Shown: positions 2,965 through 29,203 of the stretch, piece after piece | Numbering within the stretch: position 1 is the stretch's first letter | Layout: every line of letters begins with the position of its first letter | Origin: Schmidtea nova | Taxonomy: Eukaryota | Direction: 5' to 3' | Length of the DNA stretch: 64,000 nt | Assembly: GCA_044892505.1 (NCBI GenBank) | Contig: CM097884.1 | Span: 121,272,001 to 121,336,000 of the forward strand | Translations under genes and position numbers: made by a program | Notes under the pieces: generated by a model | Seen by the model: only the letters and a program-made list of their open reading frames with translations | Databases searched by the model: none | Told to the model about the DNA's origin: nothing

Positions 2965-3426
2965 TGCTGGGTTCATGGAGGGGATAGATGAAAAATGTTC
3001 TAACAATGACTAGGGATCCCTCATCCATGATCATGCATAAAATTGCAATTCTACACTCAAGCGCCCTTGATTATTTCCCTATATAATCAAGTTGGTGATG
3101 CGCAGGGTGGTTAAACAATGATGGGCAGGTGAGCACTATCGCTAGTACCCATTTATGTTTACGGGTTCATTGCTGCCGTTAGAAGGACTTATGCTTTAAT
3201 CATCTACTTATGTATTCCGCGTTAATCTTTCAGAAAATTTATTTTTATCATTGCTCAGTCTGCGAGAAGTATTTCAACGAATGCTCGCTTAATTATTTAA
3301 TTATCTCTATTCGATATTTTGTAAACTGAATTTATACTTTTGTTCTATCTTTATCTAATCATTGGTAAAGTTAATTAAATCAATTTAAATGAACGATGAA
3401 ATTCTTAAGCCAATACAACAATTTAT

Positions 3427-4023
3427 TTAATTTTTAATGAGTTCGGTAAAAACTCCCGCCGGAGGAAAAATCTCCGTCAATAATGCCTCCTCGGTCATCT
3501 GATGTAGACCGTCTACTTGGCTTTGTAATCGCTGGGCAAATAATCTTCTCTGTCTCCGCCGTTTCTGCCCAATGCGCTTGCGTTTCTGGTGCGCAGTTGC
3601 CGGTGAGGTGGTTGAATTTGCTGTAGGAGCTGTCTCATTCCGACTTTCGATTAGATCGGTGACATCCGTGCCAATGGAGTTTACCGTCTTCTTTTCTGCT
3701 GTCCAAGCTTGGTACGTAACAGGACGGATTTGCTCTCTGAGTTCTTTCTCGATATATGAGGCAGTTACGGAATGGAGGCATTTTCGGAGTTCTATCTTTG
3801 TAGCCTCCCATTCCATTTGATAATCGGCTGCCGTCTGTTGGGCGCGCTCGGTTTTACTGATTTGCTCCTTCATTCGGGCCGGAGCAAACCAGCTTTTGCG
3901 CAGATATTCAATCTGTGCCTCTGCTTTGATCAATTGTGCCTTGAGGAGACCCAATTCCTTATCCTGGGCTCTCCGAATCCGCCACCTCTTTTCCAATTCT
4001 CTCTGCATCAAATCGGGGTTCAT
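3427..4023 (-). CDS. LTR-encoded 198-aa protein: coiled coil plus Arg-rich motif KRKRIGQKRRRQRR (3' LTR copy)
   Basis: ATG-started ORF, identical in both LTRs; TTATAG acceptor 1 nt before the ATG; AATAAA overlaps the stop. Confidence 0.65.
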   Translation of the reverse strand: MNPDLMQRELEKRWRIRRAQDKELGLLKAQLIKAEAQIEYLRKSWFAPARMKEQISKTERAQQTAADYQMEWEATKIELRKCLHSVTASYIEKELREQIRPVTYQAWTAEKKTVNSIGTDVTDLIESRNETAPTANSTTSPATAHQKRKRIGQKRRRQRRLFAQRLQSQVDGLHQMTEEALLTEIFPPAGVFTELIKN

Positions 4024-4215
4024 TCTATAATTTATTCAGGATATTTACTCTATGATTTAATTATATGAAAATTAAAATCTGATCATAGGATTATTAGGTC
4101 ACGAATATGAACTATTAAAATGCGAAACAAAACAAAAAAAAATATAAATAAAAAAACAAAATTCACTAATGAACTATAATATTTTAATACAATTTCAACA
4201 TTTGTTGATCAGTTT

Positions 4216-4677
4216 TCATCTTCGAAACAAACAATGCAATTCGCTGTTAATCGGTTTCTGACGCAGACGAGCCCAGGAAAACGCAGGTTGTCCTTTCTGG
4301 CATTCCTTGCCGAACGGTTTTCGCGGTAGGAATTCGTGCAGACCCAATCGGCATAGCTCTCGACGGGGAATATGCCCCCAATAAATTACACGGCTTATCC
4401 GTCCCTCTGTGTCCTGGATCAGTACGACAAGTCGGCCAAATTTGTTTGAGTACGGCCTTTGAGAAATCGGCCAGTTCGGTCCTCCTCGATAGAGTATTAT
4501 ATCGTTTCCTCCGTCCCAGATGGAAAACGGGCACTTTCGGCCAAACCCCTGTCGCCACTTATATATCTGGCAGTTGAGGGTTCGCAATATCGATGCCGGT
4601 AGATCCTTGAGCTGCGAGATATTTCCATTTCGTAGATTCCCTTGTTCCATATTCCGTAGTTGAGTTAATTGATTCAT
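4216..4677 (-). CDS. LTR-encoded 153-aa protein of unknown function (3' LTR copy)
   Basis: ORF present in both LTRs. A diverged protein-level homologue lies at ~62970-63340 (KWRQ..CPFS.W.GG.D....GG..WPI). Confidence 0.7.
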   Translation of the reverse strand: MNQLTQLRNMEQGNLRNGNISQLKDLPASILRTLNCQIYKWRQGFGRKCPFSIWDGGNDIILYRGGPNWPISQRPYSNKFGRLVVLIQDTEGRISRVIYWGHIPRRELCRLGLHEFLPRKPFGKECQKGQPAFSWARLRQKPINSELHCLFRR

Positions 4678-6091
4678 AAGTTCAGCTGTCGACCTCTATA
4701 TTACATTTATTGGATATAAAATATACGAGTTAAGGGGGAAATTCGTTGATAATTTAATTATACTGTATATGATCACAAAAGTTACTTAAAAATAAGATTA
4801 ATTTGATTTCTCTCCGCCGTGATCTACCACGGTCGGAATAAAGAGTTCATAATTAGCCCTGTGCTATATACAGCATTCAGGAATTATCAAATTTAATCAA
4901 GATTTCCGCGCTATATACAGCGATCGGATTATAACTTGGGAACCGCGCCATATACGACGATCGGCCTATTTTTAGTAACTAATTTAATTTGGATTTTCCG
5001 ACGCATTCCATCGCGATCGGAATTTATCGATATTAAAATTCTGTAGGCGAGATGCTGATTCCGAATGAAGTCGGACTTTGGACTACGTTGGATTTTCTCA
5101 TTTCAGCGAAATTATTCAAATTTATTTTATTTGTTGCTCACTGGTTTTCCATGCGGGAGGTTCCATTTCAATTCAATTTACTAAAATTTAAAGAATGAAC
5201 ATGCCTTACCATGGGGTGTCCCTCCTTATCAATCCGCCCTCCGCAATCTCCCTATTTGGCCCTCGACCTCCGTCCGTTGTGCAACCCAGAATTAAATAAT
5301 TAGTAAATGGTCTGTACTAGACTAAAAATTCAATCAAATTTTCTAAATAAAATTCCACATCTAAACTAAATAATAAAAAGGTTGAACCGCCATGTGAGAC
5401 CCTGAGGCCCCACAACGACGACTCGGACTCCCTCGCCGCGTGAGCAGCATAGGAAGTATAGCTATATGCATTAAAGTGTCAATAAAATAATCAATGAAAA
5501 AAAATAAAATGACGTTTACATATAAAATTTTAATTAAATAAAAATCATGGGTACATCATATAAGATAACATAAAAATTACTTCCGTACTTGAATGTGTGG
5601 TTCCTTGTATGAAATTCGGTTCTTTCAAAAAATTACTCAAATCAAAGTTTAGTCTTGATTGTGAGTGAAAATGTAAAACGTCTCTGTCTGTGATTTTTGG
5701 ATCGGTATTTATACTGATCCTTCTGGTTGGATTGACCAATCAGGATCAGGCCGTCCTTCAAAGTATTTTTATTATTTTAATCTAATCTAAACATTATTTT
5801 GTTTCCTTTTCCGGTTTCTCGCTGGGTGGTCCTGATTTTCTAAGTAATTAATTAATTATTTGTACTATTATTTTATTTAATTCTATTTTTTCTTATTTCA
5901 GGCCCCCTTTTGCGGTTGTTTACCGGTTTATTTTCAAAATTTCCTTTTACTGAAAATTTATCAATTATTATTTGTCGTTTTATTGTTATTTTTAATTTGT
6001 TTTTCTTGCTATTTTTATTTTTATTATTTCTTTATTGTTTCATGCTTTTGTTCGTTTTATTGTGTTTTTAGGTGATTTGGCGGGCCCAACA

Positions 6092-6293: not shown

Positions 6294-6863
6294 TTATACA
6301 ATTTGTTCGATCGTCTGGCTCGCTTGGGGTTGAGTTCGGGTCCTCTCGTTGATCATTTGTAGTTCGTAGTGGGTTTGGATGTGGTTGAGGTGGCTCCTTA
6401 TTCGTCTTTGAGCTCGGTTATCTCGTCTGGAGGTTTGGTTGTAGATTTTCTGCTTTTGTTTTAGGATTTTTATTCTATACGAGGCAAGCAGGATTGTGAT
6501 TGCGATGATAGTTGTGCTGACTGCTAGGATTATGATGATTGTTATGATCCATTTCTCTTGATATTCTATTTCAGCTTGGGATAGGCTTTTTATGGGTTCT
6601 CTACCTTCTTTCAGGATTTTTCGGGTTTCCTTTAATTTCAGTTGTTGGTTACCGAAGATTTGTTGGATTTGATGGTCTTGATTGTGGGGGTATTTCTGTC
6701 GGAATTCGTTGATTTCTTTAATTACTTCTTCGATTAGTCTGTCTACTTTCTGGTAGATTTTGTCGGGTAGCACTCGTAATTGGGTTTCGGTTAGTTGTAA
6801 ATCTTCTCTCTGTAGGGTAATGGTTGTTAACCATAGGAGTGTTGCTATTGCGAGCTTTCTCAT
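6294..6863 (-). CDS. Accessory type-I membrane protein, 189 aa from ATG 6863 (signal peptide, coiled coil, TM, basic tail)
   Basis: MRKLAIATLLWLTTITLQ is signal-like; TM WIITIIIILAVSTTIIAITILLASY followed by RIKILKQKQK. The ORF-track start at 6896 is GTG. Confidence 0.7.
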   Translation of the reverse strand: MRKLAIATLLWLTTITLQREDLQLTETQLRVLPDKIYQKVDRLIEEVIKEINEFRQKYPHNQDHQIQQIFGNQQLKLKETRKILKEGREPIKSLSQAEIEYQEKWIITIIIILAVSTTIIAITILLASYRIKILKQKQKIYNQTSRRDNRAQRRIRSHLNHIQTHYELQMINERTRTQPQASQTIEQIV

Positions 6864-6938
6864 CTCTTTTATACATTGGTCAATACAGCTTGACACTTTT
6901 TATTTTACATAATTTATTTACACTTGGTTTCCGCACAT

Positions 6939-8000
6939 TTATACAAGGGTTTCGTTGGGTTCGTGAAAACCTTCGTCTTGAGGTTCCACCTGATTTATGG
7001 GGAGTGGCATCCATATTACCGTGCTCCTCCACATTTCGACTTCTTCTCGGTATGTGTGGGATATTTGGATCTCTTCGTCTAACAAGTATTCCAAATAGTT
7101 TGCTTGTTCTGTAAGGGTTTCAATTTGTCTTTCTAGTTCCATTAATCTTTTCTCTCTCTCCTCTTTCTCCATCATTTCGGTCACTGCTGCTGTGATACTT
7201 GTTTCTTTTATTGGCGTTGGTTTTTCTGCCAACTTCTTTCTCAGTTCTTCGTTTTCTTTTGTCAAATTTGTTATGTTCTCTTCATAACTCTGCCTCGTTT
7301 CTTCCAGTCTTTCTTTAGTTCTTTTTAATTCTATTTTCTTCTGGGTGATCACTCCTTGATATCCATTTATATCTCTTTTCATGTTTTCTTCTTTGTGATT
7401 CCACATTCCGGTCAGCATACCTTTTAATTGTTCTTGATTGGCTAAATCTTCTCCCATTCTTTGTACTTGATAAGTTAATTCTTTTATTTTCTTGGCTTGT
7501 TCTCTGATAAATTGTTGTCTTTTCTTACTCCATACTTTATTTGACGCTTCTTGACTGATCTTTTGCCCTAATTCCTCTTTTAATTCATCGATCTCTTTAA
7601 ACAGTTTCCAATCATCGCTGTACGCTGTTCGTTCTATTATCTCCCTTGCTTCCTTATAAGAGTCTTTTGCCTCTTTCTTCCAATATCTTGCTTGTTCTGT
7701 GATTGACTGAATCTTATGGTCTGTTTTTATTTGTTGTCTATCCCTATCCTCTCGTCGCTCTTTCATCATCTCTTTGTAGTATTCGTTTTGTTGTCTTAGT
7801 AGTTTGTAGACTTCTTCTATTTTTTCTCGACTTCTTTGATTCGTTTTCTCGGCTTCTCTTAGTGCTTGGGTTTGTCTTTCCAATTCCTCCTGTTTTCGAT
7901 AATAGGCATGAATCCATATCCCAATCCGCTCCATGTGATTTCTGATCATTTCGTCTTGATGTACTGTTACTTCTTGTAAGGTTACTTCTATATTTCCCAT
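6939..8000 (-). CDS. Accessory 353-aa long coiled-coil protein, unknown function
   Basis: Intact ORF with E/K/R/Q-rich heptads; AATTATAG acceptor 2 nt before the ATG. Confidence 0.75.
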   Translation of the reverse strand: MGNIEVTLQEVTVHQDEMIRNHMERIGIWIHAYYRKQEELERQTQALREAEKTNQRSREKIEEVYKLLRQQNEYYKEMMKERREDRDRQQIKTDHKIQSITEQARYWKKEAKDSYKEAREIIERTAYSDDWKLFKEIDELKEELGQKISQEASNKVWSKKRQQFIREQAKKIKELTYQVQRMGEDLANQEQLKGMLTGMWNHKEENMKRDINGYQGVITQKKIELKRTKERLEETRQSYEENITNLTKENEELRKKLAEKPTPIKETSITAAVTEMMEKEEREKRLMELERQIETLTEQANYLEYLLDEEIQISHTYREEVEMWRSTVIWMPLPINQVEPQDEGFHEPNETLV

Positions 8001-8113
8001 TTCTATAATTACAGATAAAAAGAATATTTAATCATTTTTTATTTTTATTGTTTTTGATTATTCGTTAATTTATATTGTTTCTATACATTTTATTTACATG
8101 GTCACTTCCTTCA

Positions 8114-9490
8114 TTACGCCAACCATCCTTTTCTGTCTGTTTTCTCATGCTTCTCCATCTCTATGTATAGCGTGTCTGCATATAGTCGCTCCCATAGGTT
8201 TTCTTTCCTTATAAACATTGGTTCTCCTGCTGCTAGTCCGCATTCTGTTGTGGGTTTTTCGCTCGTACTGGTATGTTTATCTGTTTCAAAGAACTTTTCT
8301 ACTGGTTTTCCCATACTTTTGATTCTTATAATGACTCCTACTTTCAAGGGCCATTCTATTAGGTCATCGTATTCTCCTTTACATAGCGAGAAAAATATTG
8401 ACACGTGTGTTCCTTGTCCTCTTCCGTCTCCATTTGGGTATACTTTCAATCTTATTTTAACCCCGTTTTTCCATAAATAAAATGGTGGGCTTATTTCTGC
8501 TGTTTTCGTCATATTTCTGGCTTCTGCTAGTTTGTCTCTGAAATCTGTTACTTTCCATAGGTAAGGTGCAATTGGTAAGTCCCTTCTTTCGTCAATTTCT
8601 CGTATTAACTGATTATATTGTATTTTCATTCCTTTTCCTAATTCTTCTATGGCTATTATTTTCTTTTCCATTCTTTCGCGAGTTAGTTCAAACTGCTCTC
8701 TTGTTTCTAGTAGTAAACTCATCATTATCTTATGTGATTCTACTTCTTTTTCTAATTTCTGGATTGTCTGTTCCGTTTCTTTTGTCGTTTCGTTTGTCAT
8801 TTCTACATGCGTTAGTGCTGCTTCTTCTAGGTGTTGTTTCATTGATTGCCGCGTCCGCTTTTCTTTGCATCCCTGTTTGTTATATGGACATTCTCTTGGT
8901 CTTTCGGTACATACTTTCCAATGTTCATGTAACTTTACTTCTTCTGTTATTTCGCAATTGTTTGGACATTTACTTACATATTGTCTGCATACTTTCTCCT
9001 CTGTTATATTCAAATGTTCTTCCTCGATTTTTCCCCTTGTTTCTCGAGTTTCACAATACTCGCATGCGATTTCTTCTTCTTTACATTCTTCCTTGTGTTG
9101 TTCTCTCTTCTTTAGAGTTATTGTCTGTTGGCATTTCTCGCATTCGGCTCTCTTTTCCTCGCATTTTTCCATATGGTTCTCTAGATTGCTTATTTGTCCT
9201 TGCCATGTACAAGGTGTATTTACGCACTCCGTTATGGTGCTCATAATTTCTCTCTGGGTTGCTTTGTCCGTTCTGGTTTCGTTCAACACTATTCTTCCTT
9301 CTTTACATTCTGGGCATGTTGTTATTCCTGTTACATCTAATTCTTGTATACATTTTGTACATATTCTACATCCACATATCGTTTGTCTGGGTTCTCGTAA
9401 TAAATTGTTACATTTTCCGCATGTGAGCCTCTTGCTCCATTTTCTGTTTTCTAATCTCAAAATTTCGATTATTCGTTCTTCTCTGTCCAT
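8114..9490 (-). CDS. Full-length TRAF-family protein (RING, TRAF zinc fingers, coiled coil, MATH/TRAF-C), intronless, element-borne
   Basis: RING CGKCNNLLREPRQTICGCRICTKC..CPEC; zinc fingers CVNTPCTWQG..LENHMEKC and CPYNKQGC; MATH YLWKVTDF..ISPPFY..KVYPNGDGRGQGTHVSIFF..GEYDDLIEWP. Confidence 0.93.
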   Translation of the reverse strand: MDREERIIEILRLENRKWSKRLTCGKCNNLLREPRQTICGCRICTKCIQELDVTGITTCPECKEGRIVLNETRTDKATQREIMSTITECVNTPCTWQGQISNLENHMEKCEEKRAECEKCQQTITLKKREQHKEECKEEEIACEYCETRETRGKIEEEHLNITEEKVCRQYVSKCPNNCEITEEVKLHEHWKVCTERPRECPYNKQGCKEKRTRQSMKQHLEEAALTHVEMTNETTKETEQTIQKLEKEVESHKIMMSLLLETREQFELTRERMEKKIIAIEELGKGMKIQYNQLIREIDERRDLPIAPYLWKVTDFRDKLAEARNMTKTAEISPPFYLWKNGVKIRLKVYPNGDGRGQGTHVSIFFSLCKGEYDDLIEWPLKVGVIIRIKSMGKPVEKFFETDKHTSTSEKPTTECGLAAGEPMFIRKENLWERLYADTLYIEMEKHEKTDRKGWLA

Positions 9491-9583
9491 TCTCTACAAT
9501 AATATATACATTCGACTTGTCATTTATTTTTTGGTTTTTCTTGTTTTTATTTTTACATATTTACAATTTTCCGCTTTATTTAT

Positions 9584-9940
9584 CTATGGCTCATTCGTTG
9601 AATCTGGTTCCGCTTCGTTGTTTAGTCTATTTATTACCCAACTCATCCATCCTTCTTCGGATTCTTCTCTTTCTCCTCGTGTTAAATGGTTTATTTCTAT
9701 TGCTTGTCTTTGATTGATATTGCTTATATTTTGATTTTCTCTGGTGAGCTCGGTTATCGCTCTTTGTTGTTCTTCTATTCTGTGTAATTGTTCGAAACAG
9801 TTGTTATAACTTTCTGATAATAACATTTGTCTTTCCGCTAATTGGTTCTGTAATGAGTTGACTGTTCGTACAAATAAATCACACTGTGCCTTCCATCTCA
9901 TAGCCATAGTTATTTCAGTTGTTTCGTCCTGTTCGGTCAT
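9584..9940 (-). CDS. Accessory 118-aa coiled-coil protein, unknown function
   Basis: ATG ORF with Q/E/N-rich heptads; TTTAG 3 nt before the ATG; AATAAA just after the stop. Confidence 0.65.
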   Translation of the reverse strand: MTEQDETTEITMAMRWKAQCDLFVRTVNSLQNQLAERQMLLSESYNNCFEQLHRIEEQQRAITELTRENQNISNINQRQAIEINHLTRGEREESEEGWMSWVINRLNNEAEPDSTNEP

Positions 9941-10065
9941 TTTCTAAATTATATACATCATTTACTTTGTTTTTCTAGCTTTTTACAATTTTTATAATAT
10001 CGATACCCATACTATTACGGTAATGCTTTGTTATTTACACTATTATTTACAGTCATAATCCGCCC

Positions 10066-13000
10066 CTATACCATCATTATCGTCTTTTCCTCGTATCGTT
10101 CTTCATCTTCTATTTGTTTCCAGAATTCTTTACCTTTCGTTCTTCTTTGGAATTCTTGCTGTATCTCTTCTGGTATTTCTATTCTTTGTTTCATAATTTT
10201 AATATCTGGCCATTGTATGGCTGTCGCTTTGTTTCTCTTTCTGTATCTCCAATATATTATCATGCTTGTCGTCATTATCCCATATGCTATTAATATTCCT
10301 ATACTGATTAATCCTATTACTGTTTTTCCACGGTTTGTTGCTTTGATTTTATTCTGATTCGCTTTTATCTCATTTTGGGTTTGAGCCTCTGGCTTCTTCT
10401 CCTTCTGTACTTGATTCTTGACTTTGTTCATTACTTCTTGGGTAGACCAATGGCGGTTTAGTAGTTGTTTGACGTTATTTTCTTTTGTCTGGTTTTCTAC
10501 GCTTCCTGGTTCGATCTGTTGTTGTAGTTTCTCTGAGATCTGATATAATCCGCATTCTGGTTTTTCTGAACCTTTTCTGGTGAAGGTACATATCGCGTAT
10601 GTCCTATTTACTTCCATTTTCTTTAATTCGACTTTTTCTTTATTCTTTATTTCTTTACAGTGGGTTAGGTTGTCTTCTTCCCCTTCTGGGTTATGCTTTG
10701 TCCAACATATTCCTTTAACTGTCTGATCGAGTCCTGTTAATGTCAGAGTTCTTTCTGTCTTTGTTAGTTCTTCTTCATCGAATTTCAGTATCTCTCCTTT
10801 TTGGAATGTCTTGCAATGCTCTATTCCCTCTTGGATTCCTTTCTCCCAGATACATATACTTCCTTCTTCATTCATTTGTATTTCTTGTATTTCGATTTCC
10901 TTGTTTGTTCGTGATTCGTCGCTTGTCTGAACTTGGTATTCCTTCCTTGGTTCGTTGTATGTTCCCCAGCATAGTTTGTTGCTACTTGTTTTCCTTATTG
11001 TTATGGCCATTTGTTCTATTATTATTCCTTTATCGATACGTTTGGACATTGCTAGTATTAATGCTATGCATACGCACTCCTGTTGGGGTGATATTCTTTC
11101 TCTCGTTTTATTGGTGCTTTTCTCTCCTTCTCCTGGTTTATCCGTTGTGTTTCTTATCTGAGTTGCTGGTTGATCTATGGTGTTTTTGATTTCTTTCTTT
11201 GTTGGTTTTACTCTATACCATTCGAGTCCAGGCGTTTCATATTTTTGGCATACGACTGTCTTAGGTAGCCCCGCCTTCTTTTCCTTTCCTATTATGCATA
11301 TTCGATGCATGATTCCTCTATACATCCCTTCTATTCGTACTACATCCTGGTCGGATTTTCTGATTATGCATTTTAGTGGGTTATCTTTCCCAATTGGTTC
11401 ATCCTCTCTATTCCAGCATATTTTCTCGACCTCTTGGACATTTACTATTTTTATCCCTGCTTGTAGGTTTGTTGCTTCATCCCTATTGATTAATGTCAAT
11501 ATTATTGTTAGACCCAACCATTTTGAACTCTGCGGTAGACTTCTGGTTCGCCTTTCATATTTTTTCTCTTCTCCTTTAATCTCTTTTATTTCCTTGTCTT
11601 TGTTGTTCATTCCTGGTTTTACGATTTTTGCTTCTTTCTTACTCCTGGTCGGTTTTGGTTCTTTTCGTGCTTCTAGTATTTCGACTCCATGGCTTGTATT
11701 ATCTATATTTAGCCATTGGGTTGTTGATTTTCTTGGGCTTATCTTGCGTATCCATATAGCTGATAACGCGATTATTACTGGTATGGTTGCTGTTAATATT
11801 CCTAAGCCGATCAGTTCTTTAATTTCTTTATTCTCGTCTGTTTGTATAGGTTCGCTTTGGTTGTACATTATTCCGTATTGTCCCTTTAGTTTTCTCATTA
11901 ATTGTTCTCGTTCCTCTTGCTTTCTTTTGACTTCTTTGATAACTTCTTCAGGTGTCCATTTTGCTTGAGGGTCGGTTATTGTTTTTTCTGCGTCCATTTG
12001 TTCATTCGTTTGGCTTAGTTCCCTGAATTCGAGTTTCCTTGTTATTCCTTTTGATGTTGCGTTTACTGGTGTATAGTAGGTTTCGCATCTTTCTTGTTGG
12101 TTTCCTAGTGCGTCCGTTTTTTCTATTGTACATACTTCGTACTCGCTATTAAATTGTAGTCTTTCGATCTTGATTTCTTTATTTGTTTTTCTGCACTCTC
12201 TTGATTGTCTTCTTATATATTTCTGGACTAGTATCCAACATATCTCCAATGTTTTATTCTCTATTTTCCATAATGTCAGAGTTGCTGATGTCTTTTTCTC
12301 GGATTTTGTCGTAACTTCTTGGCTTATCGGTTGTTTATTGTTTTTAAAGGTAGTGGTGTACTTCGGTTTCCCTTTGTTTCGTTGTCTTCTTTTATTTTTT
12401 CGTGTTAACGTTTTAGTTCTTGTTCCGGATGAAGTGGTGTATATTCCGCATTCTAGGTCGTTTATCGTTATCTGATCATTTTTCTTTACCAGACATATTT
12501 CGTAAGTTTGTTTACTTTCTAAACCTTTTATTTGTATCGTCGTTGCTCCTGTACTTGTTCGACATTGTGGTGTCTTTCTTTCATTCGTCTCTTTTTCGTA
12601 CTTCCTCCAGCATACTCCTTTCACATTTGGTTCTATTTCTTTTATTTCTAATGTTATGTTTATTTTCCGCTTGATTTGTTTATTTCTCTTCCTCGTTCTC
12701 CTTCTGAACTTTATTACTTCTCCGGGTTGAAATGTTTTACATTTTGTGGTACCTTTCTTGTTTGTCTCTTTTTCTAATAGGCATAGTTTGTACATCTTAT
12801 CTGCTTTTACTTCGGATACTTTAATTACTTTGTTTGTTGTTGGTTTTCGACTTTTCCTTATTTCATTTACGCCGATTTCCTCGTTATTCCTCGCCCAACA
12901 TTTTATGTTAGTATTCTGTGTATCTTCTACTTCTGTTATTGTCATAGTTTCAATTTCTATTCCTTCCTCTAATCGTTTTATTATTATTAGTATGAGTGCT

Positions 13001-13520
13001 AAGCATAATACTTCCATTTGGTAAGACACTCTTTCGGTTTCGTTTGTGGCAACTCTTGCTTCGGGTCTTTTTATTGTAATTCGTATAGTTGGTGTTGTTT
13101 GCTTATCTATTGCCTGGGGTTTTTTGTTTTCTGTTCCCTGTGTCTCTGTTCTTCCACATTTTCCGAGGATGTAATCTCCTTTGGGTGACTGTTGTATTGT
13201 CATGGCTGCTTTAGGTGTTTGGTATTTTGCACATGCGATTGTGTTGTGTGATCTTGGATGCTTTTGTTTTCTAACGGTGCATATTTTGTACCAGGTATCT
13301 AGATCTAAGTCATTGATCTCTATGATCTCTTGCTCGTGTTTTGAGATTCTGCAATCCATCGGGCTATTTTGTTCCGTGGTTTTGTCCTTTTTCGACCAAC
13401 ATACTCGTTCGATTCCTTTTGCGTTTTTTATTTGTATTATTGCCCTTTCTTCACATGTCATTCCCTGACTTGGGTTAATTAACGTTAAAATCACTGTTAG
13501 TAATAGTAATTCTGGTTTGA
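10066..13520 (-). other. C-terminal duplicated extracellular modules: signal-like segment, several FN3-like repeats, TM helix (two copies)
   Basis: Repeated pattern ICW..C...I.I..L....Y.IC......C..Y.T. Paired segments LLTVILTLINP / LTIILTLINR and VLCLALILII / VCIALILAM. TM helices at ~11750-11818 and ~10250-10325. Confidence 0.6.
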
Positions 13521-16500
13521 AGAATGGTTTTATGGTTGATTTATAACCTGTTCTTTGGGTGTCATTTTTATCTCCTTGGTCGTTTGTTCCTTGTTCTCCC
13601 TCTTCATCTCTTTGTTTTTCGTCTTCACCTTTCTTTCCTTCCTTGTCTCGTTTCTTGTCTTTTCTCTCGTTTTCCTCTTTATCGGGTGGTTCGTGATCGC
13701 TTGGATTTTCTGAGTTGTTACCGTCGTCACTATCTGTGTTGTCATCTCCCCCTGGCTCGTCGAAAATGTCGTCCTCGACATTGATTTCTTCTATTAGTTT
13801 CGCATACGCTAATGTCGTTAGATTACTTGCCTCAAATTCTTGTGTTTCTATTTGCTCTGGTATTACTTTGTTAGTGGATTTATGTTCCAAGATTTCCTTT
13901 TTGGCCTTGATCCAATTGTTGATGTATGTCTTCATCAATTCTTTCCATTTGCCTGTGTATTTTTCCTCTTTCGGGCTGGTTGTGATTTTTAGATCTTTTC
14001 TTTCCATAAACATCTTCAATATCTCTGGCCATTTATACGTTATTAAGGCACTTCTTATGCACCAGTTTTGGTTATGTTCGGTAAACTTATTAATCCTGAA
14101 TGCTGGTTCGTTAGTATTAGGATTTATCCACGTAAGTATTGATTCTGTTAGTTCGACGTTGTTCATCATTGCTAGTACACTGGGTTTCTTGACCGTATCA
14201 GTTAGGTGATCTATTTCTTCCTGATTTGGGATTGTTTTAATGAAATTGACCATTTCCCAATTATGTGTTAATAATGCTACATCCAATATTGAATTATCTT
14301 TCTCTGTTTTGCCTGTAAGTCCTGCACCTGCTTTGTATAGTTCTTCTAATACCTTTGTTTTCGTTTTGGCCCTTGCTGCAAATACCATAAGTGTATCTCC
14401 TTTCTCGTCTATCATATTCATATTGCTGCCGCAATTTAGCATTACTCTTGCAATTTCCATTACTTTCCTATCTTTGCCATTTCGTAGAGCTCTATGTATG
14501 GGCATTATTCCGTCTTTTGGTAATAGGAATGTTACTGGCATTTCCTTTTTTATTATTACTATGTCGTTACCATTGTATGTTCCTTTTGCGTATGCGTGTA
14601 CTTTTTCAACTAATGCGCCGAGTATTTCCAGTGCATGTTTACTATTCTCGAATTCCGGTAACAATTCTTTTGCTTTTTCTTGTATCGCATCTAGTCTAGC
14701 TTGGTATGGTGCTTCTGCTTTGAAGAGTGGTGTGAGTTTCTTGTTACTTTCTCTTTCTTTTTTCTCTAAAACCTGTTTGCATTTTTCGGGATGGTTTAAG
14801 ATTTTTACTAATTCCTCATATTCGCTTACTATCGTCTGGTATATCTCGTTAAAATTGCTTATGTCTCTGTATGTTATTAGTTTATCAAGTGGTTTCGCGC
14901 ACCATTTCCTAATCTTATTGAATAAGGCTTCCTTCTCTTTATCGAATTTGTATTCTTCTTCATTCTTTGTGATGTTTATGTTTCCTCTGTCTAATAAGGT
15001 TAGTAATGTCTTCTGATCACAAGTAAATTTCAGAAGATATCTTAACAGCGCGTTTTGTCCTTCGCTGTATACTTCGTTTATGTCTAAGACCCATGTATCC
15101 TCTTCTGGTCGTTTCCATTTGATTAACTTACGGATCGTGTTGCATTTACCAATTTTGATTGCTTCTTTGATAATGTCTCTTTTAACCAATTCGTCTATCT
15201 CCCAAGTGCAGTTAGCTATTATGTATTTCAGCATTGGTTGGTGAGAACTCCATATTACGTGATTTAGCACTGTTTTGTCCTCTCTATCTCGTTCTGTCCA
15301 ACTGAAATGAGCTTTTATCAATAGATCTATCATTTCTTTATCTGCTTGGTGGATTGCGGCTGTCATTAATGGAGTTTCTTGTTCCCGATTCCCTACGTCC
15401 AAGTTTTGGTTTGTTTCTTTTGCGATTTTTAGGAATTCTTTTGCTCTTTCAATGTTTTTACACTCTATCGCATTATGTAAGGCTGGTTGTCCTCCTACAT
15501 CTTTCAATAAGAGTATTTCAGGGATTTTTTCCAATAATTCAGAAATAATTGGTTCGGTTGGTAATCCTTGTGCGTAACGGCTAATTATATGTCTAATATC
15601 CCTTGATATGCCTGCTTCGTCTCTAACATGCCATCTTCCCATTATCTCTCTCGCCTTCAATATGATTTCTTTATTTCTGATTTCTTTTTGCCTTATTTCT
15701 GCTTTGTCGTCTTCGGTTGCATTAGCTCTGAGCATATTTATCCTGGCTGTTTGTGATCTGGTTATTATTCGATTTTCTGGTGTTGTAGTTATCGTTTTAG
15801 GCACTTTCTTACATCTGCAGGTGTTTACGTATATGGGTCGTATTAACGGTCGATTTACTAGCTTAACTTTGACATTATTGTCCTTCTTGTATATAATTTC
15901 GTAAGGTCCTCTTCCAGGTCTTTGGAGTTTCTTAACAGTTCCTGGTATTATTTCGGGAGTTTCTATTATCACCCAATCTCCTGGTTTTAGATCGTTTGCC
16001 TTTACATTTTTCTTTTGGTCGTGTAAATCCTTATAACTTTCCTGATAAAATTTAATGTTGAGTTCTGCCGTTTTCCATATTTCCTGCATTCTCTCTTTGA
16101 ATTTGGTTACGTAGTCGTCATCTTCCATATATTGCGATAATGGTGGCTGATACTCTAAATCTATGGGCATGTTGCATTCTCTTCCATACATAAGTTGAAA
16201 TGGGCTTAGTTTTGTTGCTGCATGTATCGACATTCGGTATGCCATTAAACATAATTTTATATATTCGTCCCAATCAGTCTGATGTCTGCTGACGTAATTT
16301 GATAACATTCTGATCAATGTACCATTGAATCGCTCCGTTTGTCCATTCGTTTGCGGGTGATATGGTGAAGTTCTCAATTTTGCTATTCTGAAATAGTTTG
16401 TCACCTCGTTCAATAACTCACTCATGAAGTTAGTTCCTTGGTCTGTGAGTATTTGTTTTGGAGTTCCGTATCTGCAACATATTTCTTCCACTAGAATTTT

Positions 16501-19500
16501 TGCTACGGTTTTTGCTTTTTGATCTTGCATGGCAAATGCTTCCGGGAATTTCGTCAGATAATCCGTTATCACCAATATATAAATATTTCCGTTTAGACTT
16601 TCTGGTAATGGTCCTATTACGTCCATTGCTATAGTTGTCATTGGCTCTGCTGGTATCGGCATTGGTTGTAGCGGGTTCTTCCATTTCTTCCCACTATCCT
16701 TTCTGGTTGCGCAAGTTAGACAATTTTTAATCCATTCCTTTATATCTTCTTCCATTGTTCGCCAATAATATTTTTGTCTCATACGATTTATGGTCTTTTT
16801 CTCGGACATATGACCTCCCAATTTCCCATCATGGTATTGGATCATTATCTCTTTCCTTCTGTTTTCTGGTAAACACATCAATCTCTTTTCACCGTCTTGT
16901 ATTAACAACCATCCTTTATTTATTATGTAGCGATGTTGATATTTTCCTATATGTTCCTTTAGTTCCTTATTATCCTTGAATGCCTCCATATTTCGAGACG
17001 TTAGGAACTCTAGGATCTGTCCTAATTCTTTGTCTTCCTGTTGATCTTTCTTTAACTCACTAAAATCTAAATCCTCCGCTATTAATACACAAATTCGTTG
17101 TACATCAGGATCGGTTAATTCCGGAAATGTCAGTCTTGACATACAATCTGCATTCGCATTCGTTTTTCCTGATTTAAATTTTATGTCTGGTGAGTACTCC
17201 TGTAACTGCATTGCCCATCGCATTAATCTACTGGATGTTTCCTTGTGCTGTCCTAACCATACAAGCGGTTGGTGATCTGTTGTTATGCAGATGATGTGAC
17301 CCCATAGTAAATATTTAAAGTGTTTAATAGCTAATATAATTGCTAATGCTTCCCGTTCTGTTACTGAGTAATTTTTCTCGTGCTTTTTGAATGTCCGGCT
17401 ATAATATCCGATTACCCGTTCTTTTCCTTCGTCGTCGTATTGTCCTAATACTGCTCCTGCTGCATATCCGCTTGCATCTGTTGCAAGTAGGAATGGCTTC
17501 TTGAAGTCTGGGTGTACCAATATGGGTGCGGTTATCAGTTTATCTCTCAATGTTTCAAAAGCTGTTTGTTGTTCATCTCCCCATATGAATGATACGTCTT
17601 TCTTTACCAGCTCCTGTATAGGCTTTGCTATTCCGGCGTAATCTTTTATAAACTTTCTATAATATCCACATAGTCCGAGAAATTCTTGTATTTGGGTTAT
17701 TGTTTTTGGTACTGTGCATTCTTTTACTTTGTCGATATTTCTAGGATCCGGTTCTTTTCCTTTTGCTGACACTATATGTCCTAAAAATGTAACCTTTTCT
17801 TTTGCCCAATCGCATTTTGATGGCTTGAGTTTTAACTTCCATTGTCTAAGCCTAACGAATACATCTCGAATATCCTGTATGTGTTGTTCGAATGTACTAG
17901 AGTAAATCAATAAGTCGTCGATGTAGACCATGCACTGCTTTATTCCGTGGGTGACGAAATTCATGCATCTCTGAAATGATGCTGGTGCGTTCGTTAATCC
18001 AAATGGCATTTTCCGAAATTGATATAGGTCTCTACCGATGGTAAAGGCAGTTTTCTCTTTATCTTCTTCCTTCATTTTTATTTGCCAGTATCCGCTTTTC
18101 AGATCTAACGACGTAAAATATGCTGCTCCTTGTAATGTTAATAGCATTTCATTAATGTCTGGTAATGGGTAAGTATCCCTTTTTGTCACAGTATTCAATC
18201 TTCGATAGTCTATGCAGAATCTCTGTGTTCCGTCTTTCTTCTTTACCATTACCACTGGAAATTGCCAGGGTGAACAACTTGGTTCGATTACTTCTGCATC
18301 CAACATTTTCTTCACTTCTGCTTCTGCTACTGCTTTCTGTGCTTCCGCTAATTTGTACGGCCTTAATGCAATTGGTGTTTCATCTGTTAATGGTATTGTA
18401 TGTAGTGTGACATCACATGTTCCTAGATCTAAATCGGATGCTGCAAATATATCCTTATACTCTATCAGGAGTTTTTCTAGCTGCTTCCTTTGATCCTCAT
18501 TTAATAATTCACTATCAATATTCCAGGTTGGTTCTTTATCTTTCTCTGCTCCTTCTATTGGCAGTTCGATATCCATCATTGGGGTTAATTTACCTAATCT
18601 TTCGTTTTCGTATATTATTTTGTCCTCTTCGTCGAAGTTTACTACGTTTATTGGGATTTCTCCATTATCGTTTATGTTAACTAGTCCTCTTGCCATTGGC
18701 AACGCTTTTCTTTTCTCGAATCTCTTACTTGGTTCGAAAATCATATCCCCTTGGATTGTCGGATCTATTTTTACGTAACATATTTTCTCCTTTCTTGCGG
18801 GTATTATCATTTGCTTTGAACTTGTCACTTTGGCTTCTATTGCGCATATTTTTCCTGTGCTATCCTTTAGTCTCATTGTTCCGAGGTCGATTACAATCTC
18901 TTTAAATAATGCTGGCATCAAATCTGTTCCGATGATGCAAGGTACGCTTAATGCTGGTATAACTGCTACGTATGTATCGATTTCCGTGTTTAAGTGGCGT
19001 ATTTTTACCCACCATCTTCCTGCTACTTCTACAACTTCTTTGCTACATGCAATTATATGGACGTTTGTCCTTTCTATATCTCGTCTTTGCTCTTGTGGTA
19101 TCCATTTGATGTCGATGGCAGAAATGTTTGCTCCCGTGTCGATCATTGCTTCGATTTCCCTTCCGTTAATCTCTATTGTCGTGGTTAATACTGGACCTGT
19201 GTTTGATGACATCACTGCGATCGTGTGTGTATCTCCTTGTGGATCCACACTTCTACATCTTCTCATTTTATAATCTTCTGGTATCATGGGATATACATTT
19301 GTCATTGGCATCATTTGCATCGTGCTATTTTTTCCTCCTTGTAGTGGTTCTTGATACATTGTTGGTGGAGGTGCGTAACATTTCCATGCGTCGGCTGGAT
19401 TCTTTTCGATGTATTGTGGTGCTTGGTTCTTATACACTTGTCCTCCCTTATAGTCGTCATCGTCGTCATCGTCGTCACTCGAATCATTTTGGGTTTTATA

Positions 19501-22500
19501 TCCTTTCATCCTCTCCCATAAACCTTTTCTTTCTCTCTTGAGCTGTTGTCTTGCTTGTTCGTCATTCATTATCTTTTTAAATTTTCGTCCTACTTCTTCA
19601 TCTGTTCCCTTCATTTTTGCAAGTATCTTCAACAATCTCTTTATTCGATGTATGTCCTTTGAGTGTCCGTGCAACACCATCGTTTTCGCGAGGAATGGTA
19701 AAAATCCTACTACCATTTTCCAATTCACTTTCTTTTCTCTCTTGTAAATATCGAAACACGCTAACATTTGCGTTATTATCACTCTGACGATTTGTATTAT
19801 TAATATAACCCCCAGTATTCCGGCCATCATTTGTCCGAATATCAGAAATCTTCCCCACATTGCTTTCATCATATTTTCGGTGGCTTTCTTGAAATGTGCT
19901 GGTGACAACAACAGTTCATAATTCGGTCCTTCTCGATAATTCGTTCCTCCCGTTATCGTTACGATATTTGACAGTAATGCTTCTCTTCTTGCCGGGAATA
20001 ATATATTCTGCCTTGCTGCTTCTAAATCCTTTGGACTATATATTCCGTTGTTTGAGACATCTACGTCGCTGAATTGCCTATCCTTTGACAACTGCATTAG
20101 CTCGAATTCTCTTGGTGCTATCACTTCGGATCTTCCTGGGAACATAACCCATTTACCATCTGGTTTCTGATAAAGCGGTCCATACGCATTACTACAGTTG
20201 AATGGATTTGGTTCAAACCCTGGTGGATTGATGATTCTCGTCACCGGTTGGACGTATCGTACTTTTCCTTTGTAATCGATTTCTAACTCATTTGTACAGG
20301 TTCCAGGTTTCAACTGTGTTGTTGCTGCTAGCGACGCGTGTGTTTTTTCGCAAATGTATACGTACATTGCTTCTCCGACCACTCTTCCGAAATGTCCTTC
20401 TCTCAGTGGTAATAATGGCATCGCGCTATCTGGATTCGTAATCGCTACGGTCAATTTCGTCTTTAATATTTCTCGATTCAGTATACAATCATTGTTTATC
20501 AGATCGTAGTACACTTTTTGTAATGAGGCTTGTCCTCTATGGAATAGGAAATCCATTTTATTATTCACATATAGGTGTAGTTTGATATCCATTGTGTCGA
20601 TTTTGGGTTTCGCGTTTGGCACTTCTTGTTTTGACACATATATTCCTGGGTAATTTGTTTCGTATACCGTTGTACTACACTTGAGGGTTGCTTTTCCTTT
20701 TATGAACCTCATTCCCACATCCTGATTTGTGGTTATCAATACTGTTGGTGTGGCTCTCATCTCTATTCGTTTTTCTCTATGATCTGGTTTCAGTTGTCTT
20801 TTATTCTCTAAAGCTTCCTTGAGATGCTTTGCTCTCTCTTTGTCGTCATCGTCTTCTTCCTGGAACGTTTTTCCTTGGATTTCGTCGAACTTTGCTCCTT
20901 GTAGCAGTTGTAACTGACATTCGTTTACCTTTGGTTTGTACACTAATGTTGACATTCCCGTTTGACACATGCTCCTGTCGATTTTACACATGGATAACGT
21001 TTTCATTTCTCCCGTTGTTGGTTCGAAGAATGCTTCGTAGCTTTTTAGTTCGACTATATACGTATCCATCACCACTAAGTTGGTTGCGGGTACTCCGAAT
21101 ATCGGGTAGGTTTCTCCTTGACAATATCCTTCTCCTCCCGTAATCCGTCCTGCTACATAGTATGTCTGTTGCATCATCATTCCTGGCTTTCCTCTTATCT
21201 TGATTTTATCTCTTGTTGTTACTTCTCCATGTTTAAACAGTGCTTCGCAGTCTTCTCCTTGTAACACGATTGGTTCTCTTTCCGTTCCTGTCATGACAAT
21301 TGCTGAATAATGTCCTCTCCCGCAGTAGAATGCGAATCTCGTCTTCTGCACTTTACATTCATTCACCATTGTCTTTATGAGTTCTGCTTCTTGATACACG
21401 TGGTACCATTGTTCCTTTTTAATCTTTTGCAACTCTACCGGAGTTGCATCTTTGCATTGCTCCGTACCTCTCAATGAATACTTTTCTCCTAACTTCATTT
21501 GGTCGCAATCAAACACTTCGAATGCTGTTGCGCTATCGGTGCTAATCATCCATATCAACATCATCATTATTATAGCACTCAGATTCATTGATGACTTCGC
21601 GTTTCCTGTTCCTGCTTGTTCTTTTTCTAACTCTTCCAATATTTTTTCAAATTTCTTTTTCATATTCTTGGCTTGTGTTTTCTTCTGGTTAGTTTTTATA
21701 AATGTTTCCCATCCTCCTTTGTTAATGACGTAGGGTTCTATTTCTCTAGCTATAATCTTTGCGGTATTTTTTATATGTATCTCTAATGCAGTGGGTTTTG
21801 GTCGACCTCTACTCAGTGTCAACAGATTGTAGATCGTGTATGCAATAGCTATTACGTATTTGTTATCTGTTTCCGCTCCTTCTGTCAGTTTCTTTATTAA
21901 CATAGTGGTTCCTTGCCAGTCTAAGTGATTTGATTTCGTCTTTTCTTTTATGAATTCCGGTAAGATGGGTGCGATTGCGCTGTGTAGTGACTTCGCCTTT
22001 TCGCTTATCTCAGTTATCCGCCAGTATTTTCTTAATTCCGGATCAATTATTGCCAATATTTCCATTATTGTTTTCGATATCCATTCCTCCCCCTGACATA
22101 TTGGTGTTGTCTCTTTTTCTTTCATCTCCGCAATTTTATTTAATTTCCTTAAACATAATTCCCATTGATCTTGTCTCTTTTCGTCTTTATTTCTTACAAC
22201 TACAGTTGCTGGGTCTGTCTTAGGTCTACCTCTAGGTCGTTTATCCATTCCTGTACCTGTTTCCACAAATCTTGTTGTTCGTCCGGTTTCCTCGGTGACA
22301 TCTCTTGGTTCGTTAGCTCTTTCTTCTAACCATCTTTCCATTTCTTGTGTTAATTGTACATTTTCGACATTCGCTCCTCTCGTTTCGTCTTCTGTTAGAT
22401 CGTTTACTTCTTCTATTATTATTTCTTCTTCGACTTCTGCTTCTCCGGTGTTGGTTACTTGTATTGTCGTAGGTAGTTCTTGTATTCTTTCGAAAATGTT

Positions 22501-23932: not shown

Positions 23933-26900
23933 CTATGTTTTTTTGACTTGTGGTATGATTTGTTCTATCAGGGAATTTAGATTCTTTCGTAAGACTCGTT
24001 CTTTCTCGTATTCTAAACGAGGTTTTATTCTCCTTTCGAAGCACGTGTTTGCCTCCCTTGCAACTTCTTGTAGGTTCTCTTCTTCCTTTTCATCGCATAT
24101 TGATAATAGGGTTATTTCTCCTGGCCATATACCTGTTTCTACTAAGTGCGTTCTTTTCTTTACGAGTCTATTCTGCGAATAGATGAATTTGTTTTTATAT
24201 GAGCTCCCTAGTCTATCCTCTACCCATCTGTAGATATCGTCTGTAAATGGAGTTTTGATCCAGATTCTTGGTGTAGATGTATTTATTATTATTGAGATGG
24301 TGTAATTGAGGAGTGGTTCCTCTATTAATTTCCCTACGTATCGATTCAACATGTCTACTTCCCGGTCTTGTAACCATTCTTTGTAGTTCATTTGTAATAA
24401 TGCTTTCATGAATTTCCGGTATTGTTTCTTGTCCATGAACTCTTCGTTATATATTACTTCTAGCGAGTTATCTAATAATTTCTGGATTTCATCTACTTTT
24501 ATCTGTGTAGGTTCTGAGGTCTTTATTACTTCTCTCTCTTTATTTTCGTCTTCGGATTCATTTAATATGTCTCCTGCTAGGCTACTGATGTCACTATCTT
24601 CTTCATCGGAAAACTCTCTGGTGGTATTTCTTAACATATTAATATGTGCTGTTTGGTTCGTTTCCCCTTGTATATTCTCCGTTGGTTTTGTTTTGTTTTT
24701 TCTGATTTCTGGTGTTAGTTCATTTTTGTCCTCTATTACTTCGACTTTTTCCATTTTCTTTCCCAACTCGTCTATCTCTTTTAAACGTCTTCTTATCATT
24801 TTTCCTTCAAATATTCGCCGGATTCGGGTTTCGTGACGTATTGGTGGTGGAATTTCTTCTGGTTCTATTTCTTTAATTCTCATCACATTTCTTTTTGTCT
24901 CTGTTACTCCCACGTTTTCCCATATATCCGTTAATTTCAATTTTACTGATGGTGCATCTCCTATTTGTAAGAACGCTTCTCTGGGCAGTTTCGTTACTCC
25001 CGGAATCATCTGGTTTACTTTATTGAACAGTATTTCCACCTTTTCTTTTGCGTTATATTGAAATCGAAACATATGGTCGTTGGGCATGATTACCATCATT
25101 CTTTTTTTCCAAATCTCCTTTCCCTCTTCCTGGTTTATCTCGGTTTCCACTTCCTTTTTTGTTTCTTTTTCTACTTCTTCATCTTTTTGTACTATCTCTT
25201 TTCGACTTTCGTTGTCGGCTGGATTCGGGTCTATCGAATTTATTTCCAGTGTGATTTCTTTCTCGCGAGTGTCTGTTTGGTTTGTTGCTCTTAACATGTT
25301 GATTCTTAGAGGTTGTCGTTCTCTTTCTTGCTGTTTTTGTTCATCCTCTCTTTGTATTCTTGCCCATTCCTGAGCGTGTCGTGCTTGACTTTCTCGATTC
25401 AACCGTTCGTTTTCGCTTTCTATTTTTCTCATCATGCTAATTTGCTGTTGATTGGTTTGCGGATTTCCTCTCGTCGTATTGTTTATGAGTTCCGTCAACC
25501 TTTGAACTTCTTGCATCAAATGAATTTCTTTGGGGGTGGTTTTGTTCTGATTATTGTTATTGTTGTTTTGTTGGTTTCCATAATCTGGTCGGTTTACGGT
25601 ATTTGCTTGATTTCCGTAATTTGGTCGGTTCCCATTACTCTGCCAGTTTCCTCGTTGATTACTTTTTTGTCCGCAATTTCTTGAATAGTGACCAGGTCGT
25701 CCGCAATTAAAACAGATTATTGTAGAACATCTGCTTTCCGAGTGTCCTTTAACTCCACATTTTCCGCAATTCAAATTTTGATAGCATTCTTGCTGCCAGT
25801 GTCCCAACTTCCCGCATGTTTTACATTGTTTTGTTTGTCTTTGAGGGTTGTAATTGTTTTGGTTTTCAAAGTTCTGCACTTTATTTCCTTCATTCCTTCG
25901 TTGAGGGGGTGGTCGGTTTAATTGTTGCGAATTTGGAATGTGATTGTTGAGATTTACCTCTGGTTCGGTTTGTGCTGTGTCCATGGCTAAATAAATTCTG
26001 CCCTCACTTCCTATCATATGCAATTCAAATCGGTTAGCTGTTTCTAACGCTTGATCTATGGTTTTGCATCCTTGACATCCTACTTGCGCTCTTATGTCGG
26101 GTCTTCTTAATCCTCCTATGAAGATAGCTGCCATTAACTCCTCGTTTATTGGACCTCCATCCTTGAATACCGATTTTGCTAATTTTTTCAGTTCGCTCGC
26201 GTATACCGCATTAGATTCATTCATCTTTTGTTTTCTCATTGAGAACTCTATGAATGCCTCGCTCAGCACTTTATTTATTCCAAATGTTTGTTGGAAAAAA
26301 TCCTTTATCGCTGTCCAGCTTGTAGGTGGATTGGTACCATTTTTCGCTTCCAAATATAGGTCCAATGCACTATCTTTCAAATATAACTGAATTCTGCTTA
26401 CCGTTGTTTCAGCTTTCCACTTGCATACCTCCACGAATATGCCAAATTCTTTTAAAAAGGTTTCTAATTTACTCGCATCTCCGTTAAACGGTTCTCCTGA
26501 AAATTTATCCTTTATTTCTTCTCTTGGTTCACCCATTTCAATTCCGCTGTCTTGAGTTATTTTACTTTCGTTTCCTCTTGTTTCTAGTTCGTTGTTATGT
26601 TCGTCTTCCGTTTTACTCGAGCTTGAATCGCTTTCTGTTTCTCTTATTCCTTCGTTATCTGATATTATACTTTCGTTATCACTCGCGTTGATTTCTATCT
26701 CTGGTTCTACCTCGTTTTCTACTTCTTCGATATTATCGTTGTTAGTTTCGTCGATTTCTCCTTCTTGTTCTATCTCGTGTTCTATTTCTTCGATATTATC
26801 GTTGTTAGTTTCGTCGCTCTCTATTTCACTTGCTTGGTTCTCCTTGGGTTCGGCTTGGTTTTCTTTGTTACTTGAGCTGTTGCTTACTATTGACAATTTA

Positions 26901-27118: not shown

Positions 27119-27695
27119 CTATCTCTTATCGTTTCTGATTCTTCTTGCTTGATTGATTGATTTGATTGATTTGTATATCTAAAATACAAAGGTCCTCAAC
27201 GATACATTATTGTTATCGTCGCGCTTTTATTCCCTTTCTTTCGGGATTACTTATTACTGGGTTTTCATTATTTCCCATTCCCAGATTCCCCTTTATTTTT
27301 AGTCTATTTAAATTATCTATAGACTGGTCACAATTATCTGTTTATGTCGTAATAATTATCTATGTTTTATCAAATCAATTACTTTTCCCACAGTTTCCCA
27401 AATTATTGGTCGCTCGAGCGCTCTAATTCCCTGAGTCTTTCTGACTCGTTTATCATTATTTTATCATCTCTACTCATTATTCATCTCTAACTTATCCTTT
27501 TGTCTATTCTGCCGGTTTCTCCGGTCAGCTCCAATTTTTATTATTCTCCTTGCATGCTTTACTTAAGGTTGCATAATCAGCTTTACTCGCATTCTCTTAA
27601 CTACTAGTGCGCACTACTCTAAATCTCGTCGACGATTACACTATGGGTCTATATTCCTTCTATTACTATTTATCCGGATATATCTATAGTTCACT

Positions 27696-28015: not shown

Positions 28016-28055
28016 TAACGCCTAGCTAGGTCATTCAATATGGCTCATTGGCCTC

Positions 28056-28741: not shown

Positions 28742-29203
28742 TTATAAATATACAATAATTTTATCGTCTATCATCAGGTTGCACATAGGACATAGGTCGC
28801 ACTTGCTGGCACATATTTTACAAAAACGAAAATGTCCGCAAGGTAAAAACATAATTTGTATCTCGCTATCCTCACATATATAGCACTGTCGGTATCTTTT
28901 CGCTGCTTCTACCCCCTGCGCCCTCCATCGATTGTATGTTGAGGTTAATTGTTGTTCTATTTGCCTGCACTTAATATTTAATTCTGCATTTTCTAATCGT
29001 GTTCTGTACCATTTGTAGCGGGTCTCTATGTCGATTTTTCTTGTTCTTTCTGTTATCTTTATTAATCCATCTGTTTCCTCAGTCTGTGTTGTGGGTTCCT
29101 GAAATTCAATTTCTCTAAATCGGTTTATTTTCTTGCCAATCGTTTCTAATGTTTCGCTTTCTGTGTTGAGAAATTCTTCAATTTCTTTCAGTTTTTCCTC
29201 CAT
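28742..29203 (-). CDS. 153-aa coiled-coil plus C-terminal IAP-type RING (C3HC4) E3-ligase-like protein; no BIR domain seen
   Basis: CYICEDSEIQIMFLPCGHFRFCKICASKCDLCPMCNLMIDDKIIVYL at the extreme C-terminus matches the cIAP/XIAP RING pattern. TTCAG 3 nt before the ATG; AATAAA after the stop. Confidence 0.85.
   Translation of the reverse strand: MEEKLKEIEEFLNTESETLETIGKKINRFREIEFQEPTTQTEETDGLIKITERTRKIDIETRYKWYRTRLENAELNIKCRQIEQQLTSTYNRWRAQGVEAAKRYRQCYICEDSEIQIMFLPCGHFRFCKICASKCDLCPMCNLMIDDKIIVYL

Follow-up and report, generated by a model that had tools for sequence, protein, structure and literature searches.

Conserved spacers and splice acceptors in a Burro-type giant retroelement of Schmidtea nova: a possible operon

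Complex retroviruses and the adenovirus major late unit place many alternative splice acceptors before accessory open reading frames (ORFs) and serve them from a common leader in cis, and the adenovirus unit also uses several poly(A) sites. Here we describe a 64,000-nucleotide stretch of Schmidtea nova DNA (GCA_044892505.1, contig CM097884.1, positions 121,272,001 to 121,336,000 of the forward strand; the window hereafter), in which the minus strand of 2965-32658 is a giant gypsy long terminal repeat (LTR) retroelement of the Burro type, assigned by its size, LTRs and gene order against the published description. Four accessory ORFs lie downstream of pol behind short conserved spacers that end in candidate splice acceptors. 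Judged from sequence, these spacers and acceptors may constitute an operon, in which internal cleavage and polyadenylation would be followed by trans-splicing of the host spliced leader (SL), a reading that we hold with slightly less than even confidence. The element differs from complex retroviruses and adenovirus in that no conserved leader donor was identified in it.

Burro elements, flatworm operons and the presence of SL1 on Cer1 RNA are already known. The Burro elements of the Dugesiidae (PMC6431247) share with this element a size of about 30 kb, multi-kb LTRs, an env-like domain placed after gag and before protease, MATH/TRAF, ankyrin and RING domains, accessory ORFs and tandem repeats, but their TRAF domain lies in the polyprotein or upstream, whereas here TRAF forms an ORF of its own, among the four that follow pol. 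That review contains none of the terms trans-splic, polycistronic or subgenomic. Operons of the nematode SL2 type and of flatworms (PMC8629364, PMC12582326) are alike in having same-strand ORFs about 100 nt apart (gaps in Macrostomum operons peak at about 100 bp; PMC8629364), a T-rich YAG before the ATG and a host SL; in contrast, the system described here belongs to a mobile element, in which full-length RNA has to evade processing, its use of an SL is a prediction, and its putative cleavage would fall just 37-49 nt before the AG. The gypsy element Cer1 of C. elegans, whose RNA takes SL1 (PMC3315495), is likewise an LTR element with splice sites that genomic RNA skips and with SL1 on subgenomic RNA, but it makes one cis-spliced subgenomic mRNA, whereas here there is a row of separate cistrons. 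The literature searched describes no LTR element built as an SL operon of many cistrons, though work outside it (Lee et al. 2026; Grohme et al. 2018; Zayas et al. 2005) may cover Burro transcripts or planarian operon spacers.

Spacers and their shared motif

The ORFs after pol (ORF118, a TRAF-like ORF, the coiled-coil-like cc353 and ORF189, or tm189) had been placed, in a sequence-only reading of this DNA, at spacings of 125, 93, 113 and 75 nt, and these lengths are exact:

9941..10065, minus strand: spacer 1, 125 nt; TGTAAATA at 10051 and 10039; long-A hot spot at 9993; acceptor TTTAG ending at 9944; no AATAAA
9491..9583, minus strand: spacer 2, 93 nt; TGTAAATA at 9565; acceptor TTGTAG ending at 9494
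8001..8113, minus strand: spacer 3, 113 nt; TGTAAATAAA at 8098; A-run at 8040 (A18 in copy L099); acceptor TTATAG ending at 8003
6864..6938, minus strand: spacer 4, 75 nt; TGTAAATAAA at 6922; weak AAG acceptor ending at 6866, where family B has CAG

The ORFs are on the same strand, the spacers of 75-125 nt have a GC content of 0.18-0.29, and the cassette is kept in family B. This sister family emerged from a MATH search of the host genome together with family C, in which MATH lies inside the polyprotein and a homologous 3' cassette is absent. The element's own family (A) is abundant: all 150 TRAF-domain matches scored in the host genome were 94-100% identical, and a 20-nt probe matched exactly in 127 genomic copies.

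Spacers 1-4 are 84, 81, 74 and 69% identical to those of the family-B copy L002, in which the ORFs have 37-55% protein identity to family A and identity at third codon positions in the flanking ORFs is 41-50%. For shuffled spacers the figure was 64-65%, and 0, 0, 0 and 10 of 500 shuffles reached the score of spacers 1-4, respectively. All five sense-strand matches to TGTAAATA in the 29.7-kb element fall within the 406 nt of spacers, every spacer having at least one, 15-26 nt downstream of the stop codon. The corresponding enrichment (about 1e-4, even against non-coding internal DNA alone) is a post hoc statistic, because the motif was picked after inspection. The motif is mostly paired with a second TGTA motif, another TGTA stands right before each AG, and family B repeats the pattern in spacers 1-3 and has TGTAAAA in spacer 4. 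The poly(A) signal (TGT)AAATAA(A) that had been proposed for most spacers was not borne out in that form: AATAAA is present in three of the four and absent from spacer 1, and it was rejected as the spacer signal since its counts did not exceed those of dinucleotide shuffles (the probability of a count at least as high was 0.11-1.0). No spacer folds better than its shuffles (z 0.5-1.3), and thus structured RNA was not found there.

The spacers could alternatively be small internal promoters, with TGTAAATA as a DNA site, presumably of the forkhead type, and with the unpaired acceptor trimmed as an outron or little used. The motif does lie 58-111 nt upstream of each ATG in spacers that are unstructured by the z scores above, and Burro1 RNA is tissue-patterned (PMC8532177). 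However, all five matches are on the sense strand and positioned by the upstream stop, and family C has the motif twice after pol yet lacks a homologous cassette downstream, and we regard this explanation as improbable.

Splice acceptors, spliced copies and the host leader

An AG had been noted right before the four accessory ATGs, and we found it at the positions given, 3 nt upstream at 9940, 3 (or 1) at 9490, 2 at 8000 and 2 (or 0) at 6863, the last being a weak AAG. The extension of this pattern to the RING ORF (3 nt) and to ORF198 of the LTR (1 nt) was also borne out. By comparison, a YAG stands 1-3 nt ahead of just 52 of the 513 ATGs in the internal region. Ranked by T content among 2159 internal AGs, the cc353 acceptor is first, those of the RING and TRAF ORFs are in the top 0.5% and that of ORF118 is in the top 1.5%, with the weak AAG of tm189 as the exception. 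A further acceptor, missing from the earlier list, precedes gag (AG ending at 27179) in families A and B. The AG is kept in 25 of 26, 30 of 30 and 28 of 28 family-A copies at spacers 1, 2 and 3. Family B has CTAG, GTAG, YAG and CAG at 6-7, 1, 1 and 2 nt before its four ATGs (five copies, one of them without spacer 3), and ATTCAG stands 3 nt before the RING ATG in both families. The last ten letters of one host enolase intron are identical to acceptor 1.

One genomic copy, L049, retains what appears to be a spliced junction: 13548 is joined to 9943, and the 3604 nt that are gone begin with GT and end with the AG of acceptor 1 (one of 30 family-A loci; a genome-wide probe for this junction found no second copy). 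As this exact GT-AG deletion ends there, acceptor 1 is used by the spliceosome, at least occasionally, in cis, to judge from one assembled copy, which could be an assembly artefact. Excision starts some 13 codons ahead of a hydrophobic segment and takes out the entire C-terminal membrane-type region of the polyprotein; the splice could therefore be a regular alternative one and not cryptic. The family-B copy L263 is without spacer 2 and lies one base off the GT-AG product at the TRAF acceptor; it also fits a one-base-homology deletion, because the other eight aligned family-B rows carry a non-matching base.

Other candidate junctions were not recovered. The large deletions of L090, L100 and L108 are not GT-AG and were rejected as splice products. 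Spacers as ordinary introns with T/GTAAAT donors were likewise rejected: copies lacking spacer 2 numbered 0 against 127 for the control, and none was seen at spacer 3, with one probe covering about half of the possible junctions. In family A, genome probes for junctions spliced at the TRAF, cc353 and gag acceptors had no match, and among the 15 listed of 20 joints in contigs from four runs of unrecorded kind, none lies at an acceptor. An ORF118 homologue, sought for its protein N-terminus, was not found in public transcripts, and the 10 matches of one further search were six A-run length variants, two unrelated host sequences and two non-coding Burro fragments.

These observations bear on the very improbable explanation that the RNA is not processed at all, in which ribosomes would reinitiate on one RNA, the AG would reflect a purine-rich start context, the A tracts described below would be slippage of reverse transcriptase (RT) and TGTAAATA would be a 3' untranslated region element, which we take to be of the Pumilio type. 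It accords with the rarity of spliced copies, with an AG 1-3 nt upstream of 27% of internal ATGs and with seven occurrences of the consensus TGTA(A/C/T)ATA in the spacers. It is opposed by the T-rich YAG kept at six ORFs in two families and by the exact GT-AG junction of L049.

The search for SL RNA genes that had been suggested for the host was productive. The SL motif (query from Fig. S6 of the PMC10899757 supplement) had 1,671 genome matches, of which at least three are SL RNA genes, and the SL is of the Schmidtea type. At 66 loci from the head of the match list, all 75 matches were an SL exon joined to other sequence. They fell into 40 distinct inserts, and the first ATG comes no more than 3 nt after the join in 9 of these and no more than 7 nt after it in 16. 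In four host parent genes the SL replaces a T-rich outron ending in YAG, and the Burro acceptors thus resemble host SL acceptors, though they are less T-rich.

These SL matches disclosed a separate repeat family, in which a full SL exon is joined to 5' fragments of host mRNAs between shared arms, with about 1,670 fragments genome-wide. One copy, with a BRCT gene fragment, lies in the window (51221-52525, plus strand). Intact copies have direct repeats of 0.8-1.5 kb, 99.5-100% identical including the SL and cDNA, that flank one long ORF of host fragments (HSP90, ubiquitin, FKBP or FHA), and no RT was found in the three copies scanned. The family has the look of a non-autonomous element whose terminal repeats take up SL-capped mRNAs, perhaps with the SL as transfer homology, and it may be more novel than the Burro spacers. 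A spliced enolase cDNA fragment is also dispersed in dozens of copies inside a repeat, the parent being an intron-containing gene in L020; none of the six copies examined carries an SL.

Long A tracts and the proposed processing

The A5 run at 9993 is expanded to A16-A39 in seven copies, and the four of these seven that were placed on trees (29 rows, one row dropped per tree) occupy at least three separate positions. Expansions of at least 8 made up 6 of 625 non-coding A-run observations (four at 9993 and two at 29440), whereas none was seen in 565 coding A-run or in 344 T-run observations, LTR sites being counted twice in these tallies. The leader A-run at 29440 is usually A6 in 11 other matches, with A16 and A31 in two. 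Single copies have A18 at 8040 (L099) and A15 at the run next to 9993 (L107). The sites 9993, 8040 and 29440 and a family-C tract all lie 46-58 nt downstream of TGTAAA(T/C), and those of spacers 1 and 3 lie 49 and 37 nt, respectively, before acceptors 1 and 3.

Poly(A) capture by template switching has a precedent in retroviral transduction. We lean, if narrowly, towards the long A tracts being poly(A) tails captured by RT template switching. Read in this way, they would place cleavage about 45-60 nt after the TGTAAA motif, which may have a role like that of UGUA and CFIm; a CFIm25 gene is encoded in the host genome.

In the operon reading, one long transcript would cover the ORFs of the element, and each spacer would present, in order, a stop codon, a paired TGTAAA, a cleavage site about 50 nt on, an acceptor and an ATG. 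Cleavage and polyadenylation would probably occur inside each spacer and leave a downstream RNA that is uncapped and has an unpaired acceptor, the situation that SL trans-splicing resolves in operons (PMC12582326, PMC8629364). The host SL, serving as the normal donor, would probably be joined at the acceptor and so cap each downstream mRNA, and unprocessed RNA would stay the packaged genome. In its widest form, which we advance more tentatively still, up to eight or nine cistrons (the LTR ORFs, RING, gag-pol, ORF118, TRAF, coiled-coil and membrane ORFs) would be freed by internal polyadenylation and the SL, with genomic copies keeping fossils of the process. The earlier suggestion of a polycistronic RNA resolved by an SL or a cis leader is partly supported, by conserved acceptors, spliceosomal use of acceptor 1, host SL genes and SL-joined mRNA copies, but internal 3' ends are suggested by the strand- and site-specific long A tracts and not by AATAAA.

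A number of observations weigh against this operon reading. The interval 10-30 nt before 9993 contains neither a canonical poly(A) hexamer nor a listed variant; all seven tracts there begin at one fixed base and a weak hairpin abuts the run, both of which fit RT slippage equally, and none of the seven is in family B. Planarian poly(A) sites are reported without an upstream UGUA, and planarians without CFIm59/68 (PMC5068929). The four host SL acceptors lack TGTAAATA in the 420 nt that precede them. The 113 SL matches examined included no Burro sequence, nor did targeted probes find one (100 of 149 matches being listed for one probe), a negative with little power because a Chao1 estimate puts the SL-joined library at only about 58 inserts. 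The SL itself ends in AUG, the AG-to-ATG distances (1, 2, 3, 6 and 7 nt) do not keep its frame, and at the family-A RING ORF it would create AUG-UAA. Finally, both junction fossils are cis and not trans.

This last point favors an explanation that keeps the same acceptors and internal poly(A) sites but has each ORF cis-spliced to a common 5' exon in the LTR or leader, which we consider unlikely, if by no means negligible. Of the two cis fossils, L049 is exact and L263 one base off; the donor hexamer of L049 recurs at 29411, just past the primer-binding site; an exon ending in AG would give a purine at -3 for 1-nt spacings, where the SL would give U; and the terminal AUG of the SL is avoided. 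Yet none of the acceptors of ORF118, TRAF, cc353 and gag was found joined to a leader donor in any copy (although RNAs of this sort could be devoid of the packaging signal), family B shows no evident counterpart of the 29411 donor, and cleavage just upstream of the acceptors would be expected to compete with introns of up to 22 kb.

Element layout, neighboring features and significance

The element is 29.7 kb in total, with LTRs of 3.1 kb, each holding two ORFs, and a 4-bp target-site duplication outside both LTRs. Its other features are as follows:

29541..32658, minus strand: 5' LTR, 3.1 kb, from the LTR pair and the 4-bp target-site duplication
29517..29534, minus strand: primer-binding-site-like 18-mer directly inside the 5' LTR, identical in family B, presumably matching tRNA-Pro
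29419..29440, minus strand: leader A-run, A22, 54 nt past a TGTAAAC and followed by the candidate donor AG/GTTATA at 29412/29411
28742..29208, minus strand: RING ORF, 153 aa, with the acceptor ATTCAG 3 nt before its ATG, kept in family B
27107..27190, minus strand: T-rich acceptor (AG end 27179), conserved in family B, preceding the gag open frame
23933..26536, minus strand: gag with CCHC knuckles, from ORF and domains
10066..23922, minus strand: polyprotein, 4618 aa, with Pfam fusion-glycoprotein (env-like), protease, RT, RNase H, integrase and ankyrin repeats
13546..13548, minus strand: donor CAG/GTTATA, used in the spliced copy L049
9584..9940, minus strand: ORF118, without a Pfam match, 49% identical to family B
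8114..9490, minus strand: TRAF-like ORF, 458 aa, zf-TRAF and MATH (Pfam)
6939..8000, minus strand: coiled-coil-like cc353, 353 aa, with a sub-threshold filament match and nothing else
6294..6863, minus strand: ORF189 (tm189), with hydrophobic N-terminal and internal stretches and no Pfam match
2965..6091, minus strand: 3' LTR, containing ORF153 (4216-4677) and ORF198 (3427-4023; TTATAG 1 nt before the ATG)

The gene order of gag, env-like domain and protease-RT-RNase H-integrase, with ankyrin, MATH and RING extras, fits the published Burro description (Pfam against PMC6431247). A gag/pol frame break in the window copy is absent from all six sister copies seen, and the hydrophobic stretches of ORF189 would suit a membrane role. 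A large cluster of host TRAF/MATH genes lies at 405-455 Mb of genome contig C2 and is a possible source of the element's TRAF ORF.

Upstream of its first ATG, the gag frame (26536-27118, minus strand) is open and Met-free for 170-197 codons in family A, 121 in B and 100 in C, and its length changes in family A are all in-frame (10 full copies). It starts at 27118, near a purine-NN-ATT-G site of a kind present in families A, B and C, and AUU (non-AUG) initiation of gag is possible. Tandem arrays of 32-nt and 29-nt units adjoin at 27632-28288, between RING and gag, and vary in copy number among copies. Upstream of ORF153, the LTR (4810-4940 and 31390-31520, minus strand) has three or four degenerate and partly palindromic units at intervals of about 45 nt, variable between copies, which are candidate promoter elements.

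Elsewhere in the window, a second gypsy element of 5.5 kb with identical 260-nt LTRs (33118-38602, minus strand) adjoins the Burro-type 5' LTR. A GPN-type ATP-binding gene fragment (99-509, minus strand), a BED-finger/DUF659 transposase-like ORF (55189-56652, plus strand) and another RING ORF (60666-61322, minus strand) are also present.

Planarian genomes are rich in Burro elements, one of which reportedly supports the survival of stem cells by way of an accessory protein (as cited in PMC13465017); the literature searched gives no account of how a 30-kb LTR element expresses many ORFs. Should the ORFs be cis-spliced to a common leader instead, the present analysis would supply exact junction and 3'-end coordinates that are directly testable with existing RNA-seq. 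If the SL model is true, the spacers would provide the first worked planarian intercistronic signal, made up of a paired TGTAAA, a cleavage site and an acceptor, and the element would be a retroelement built as a eukaryotic operon, having adopted the operon grammar of its host.

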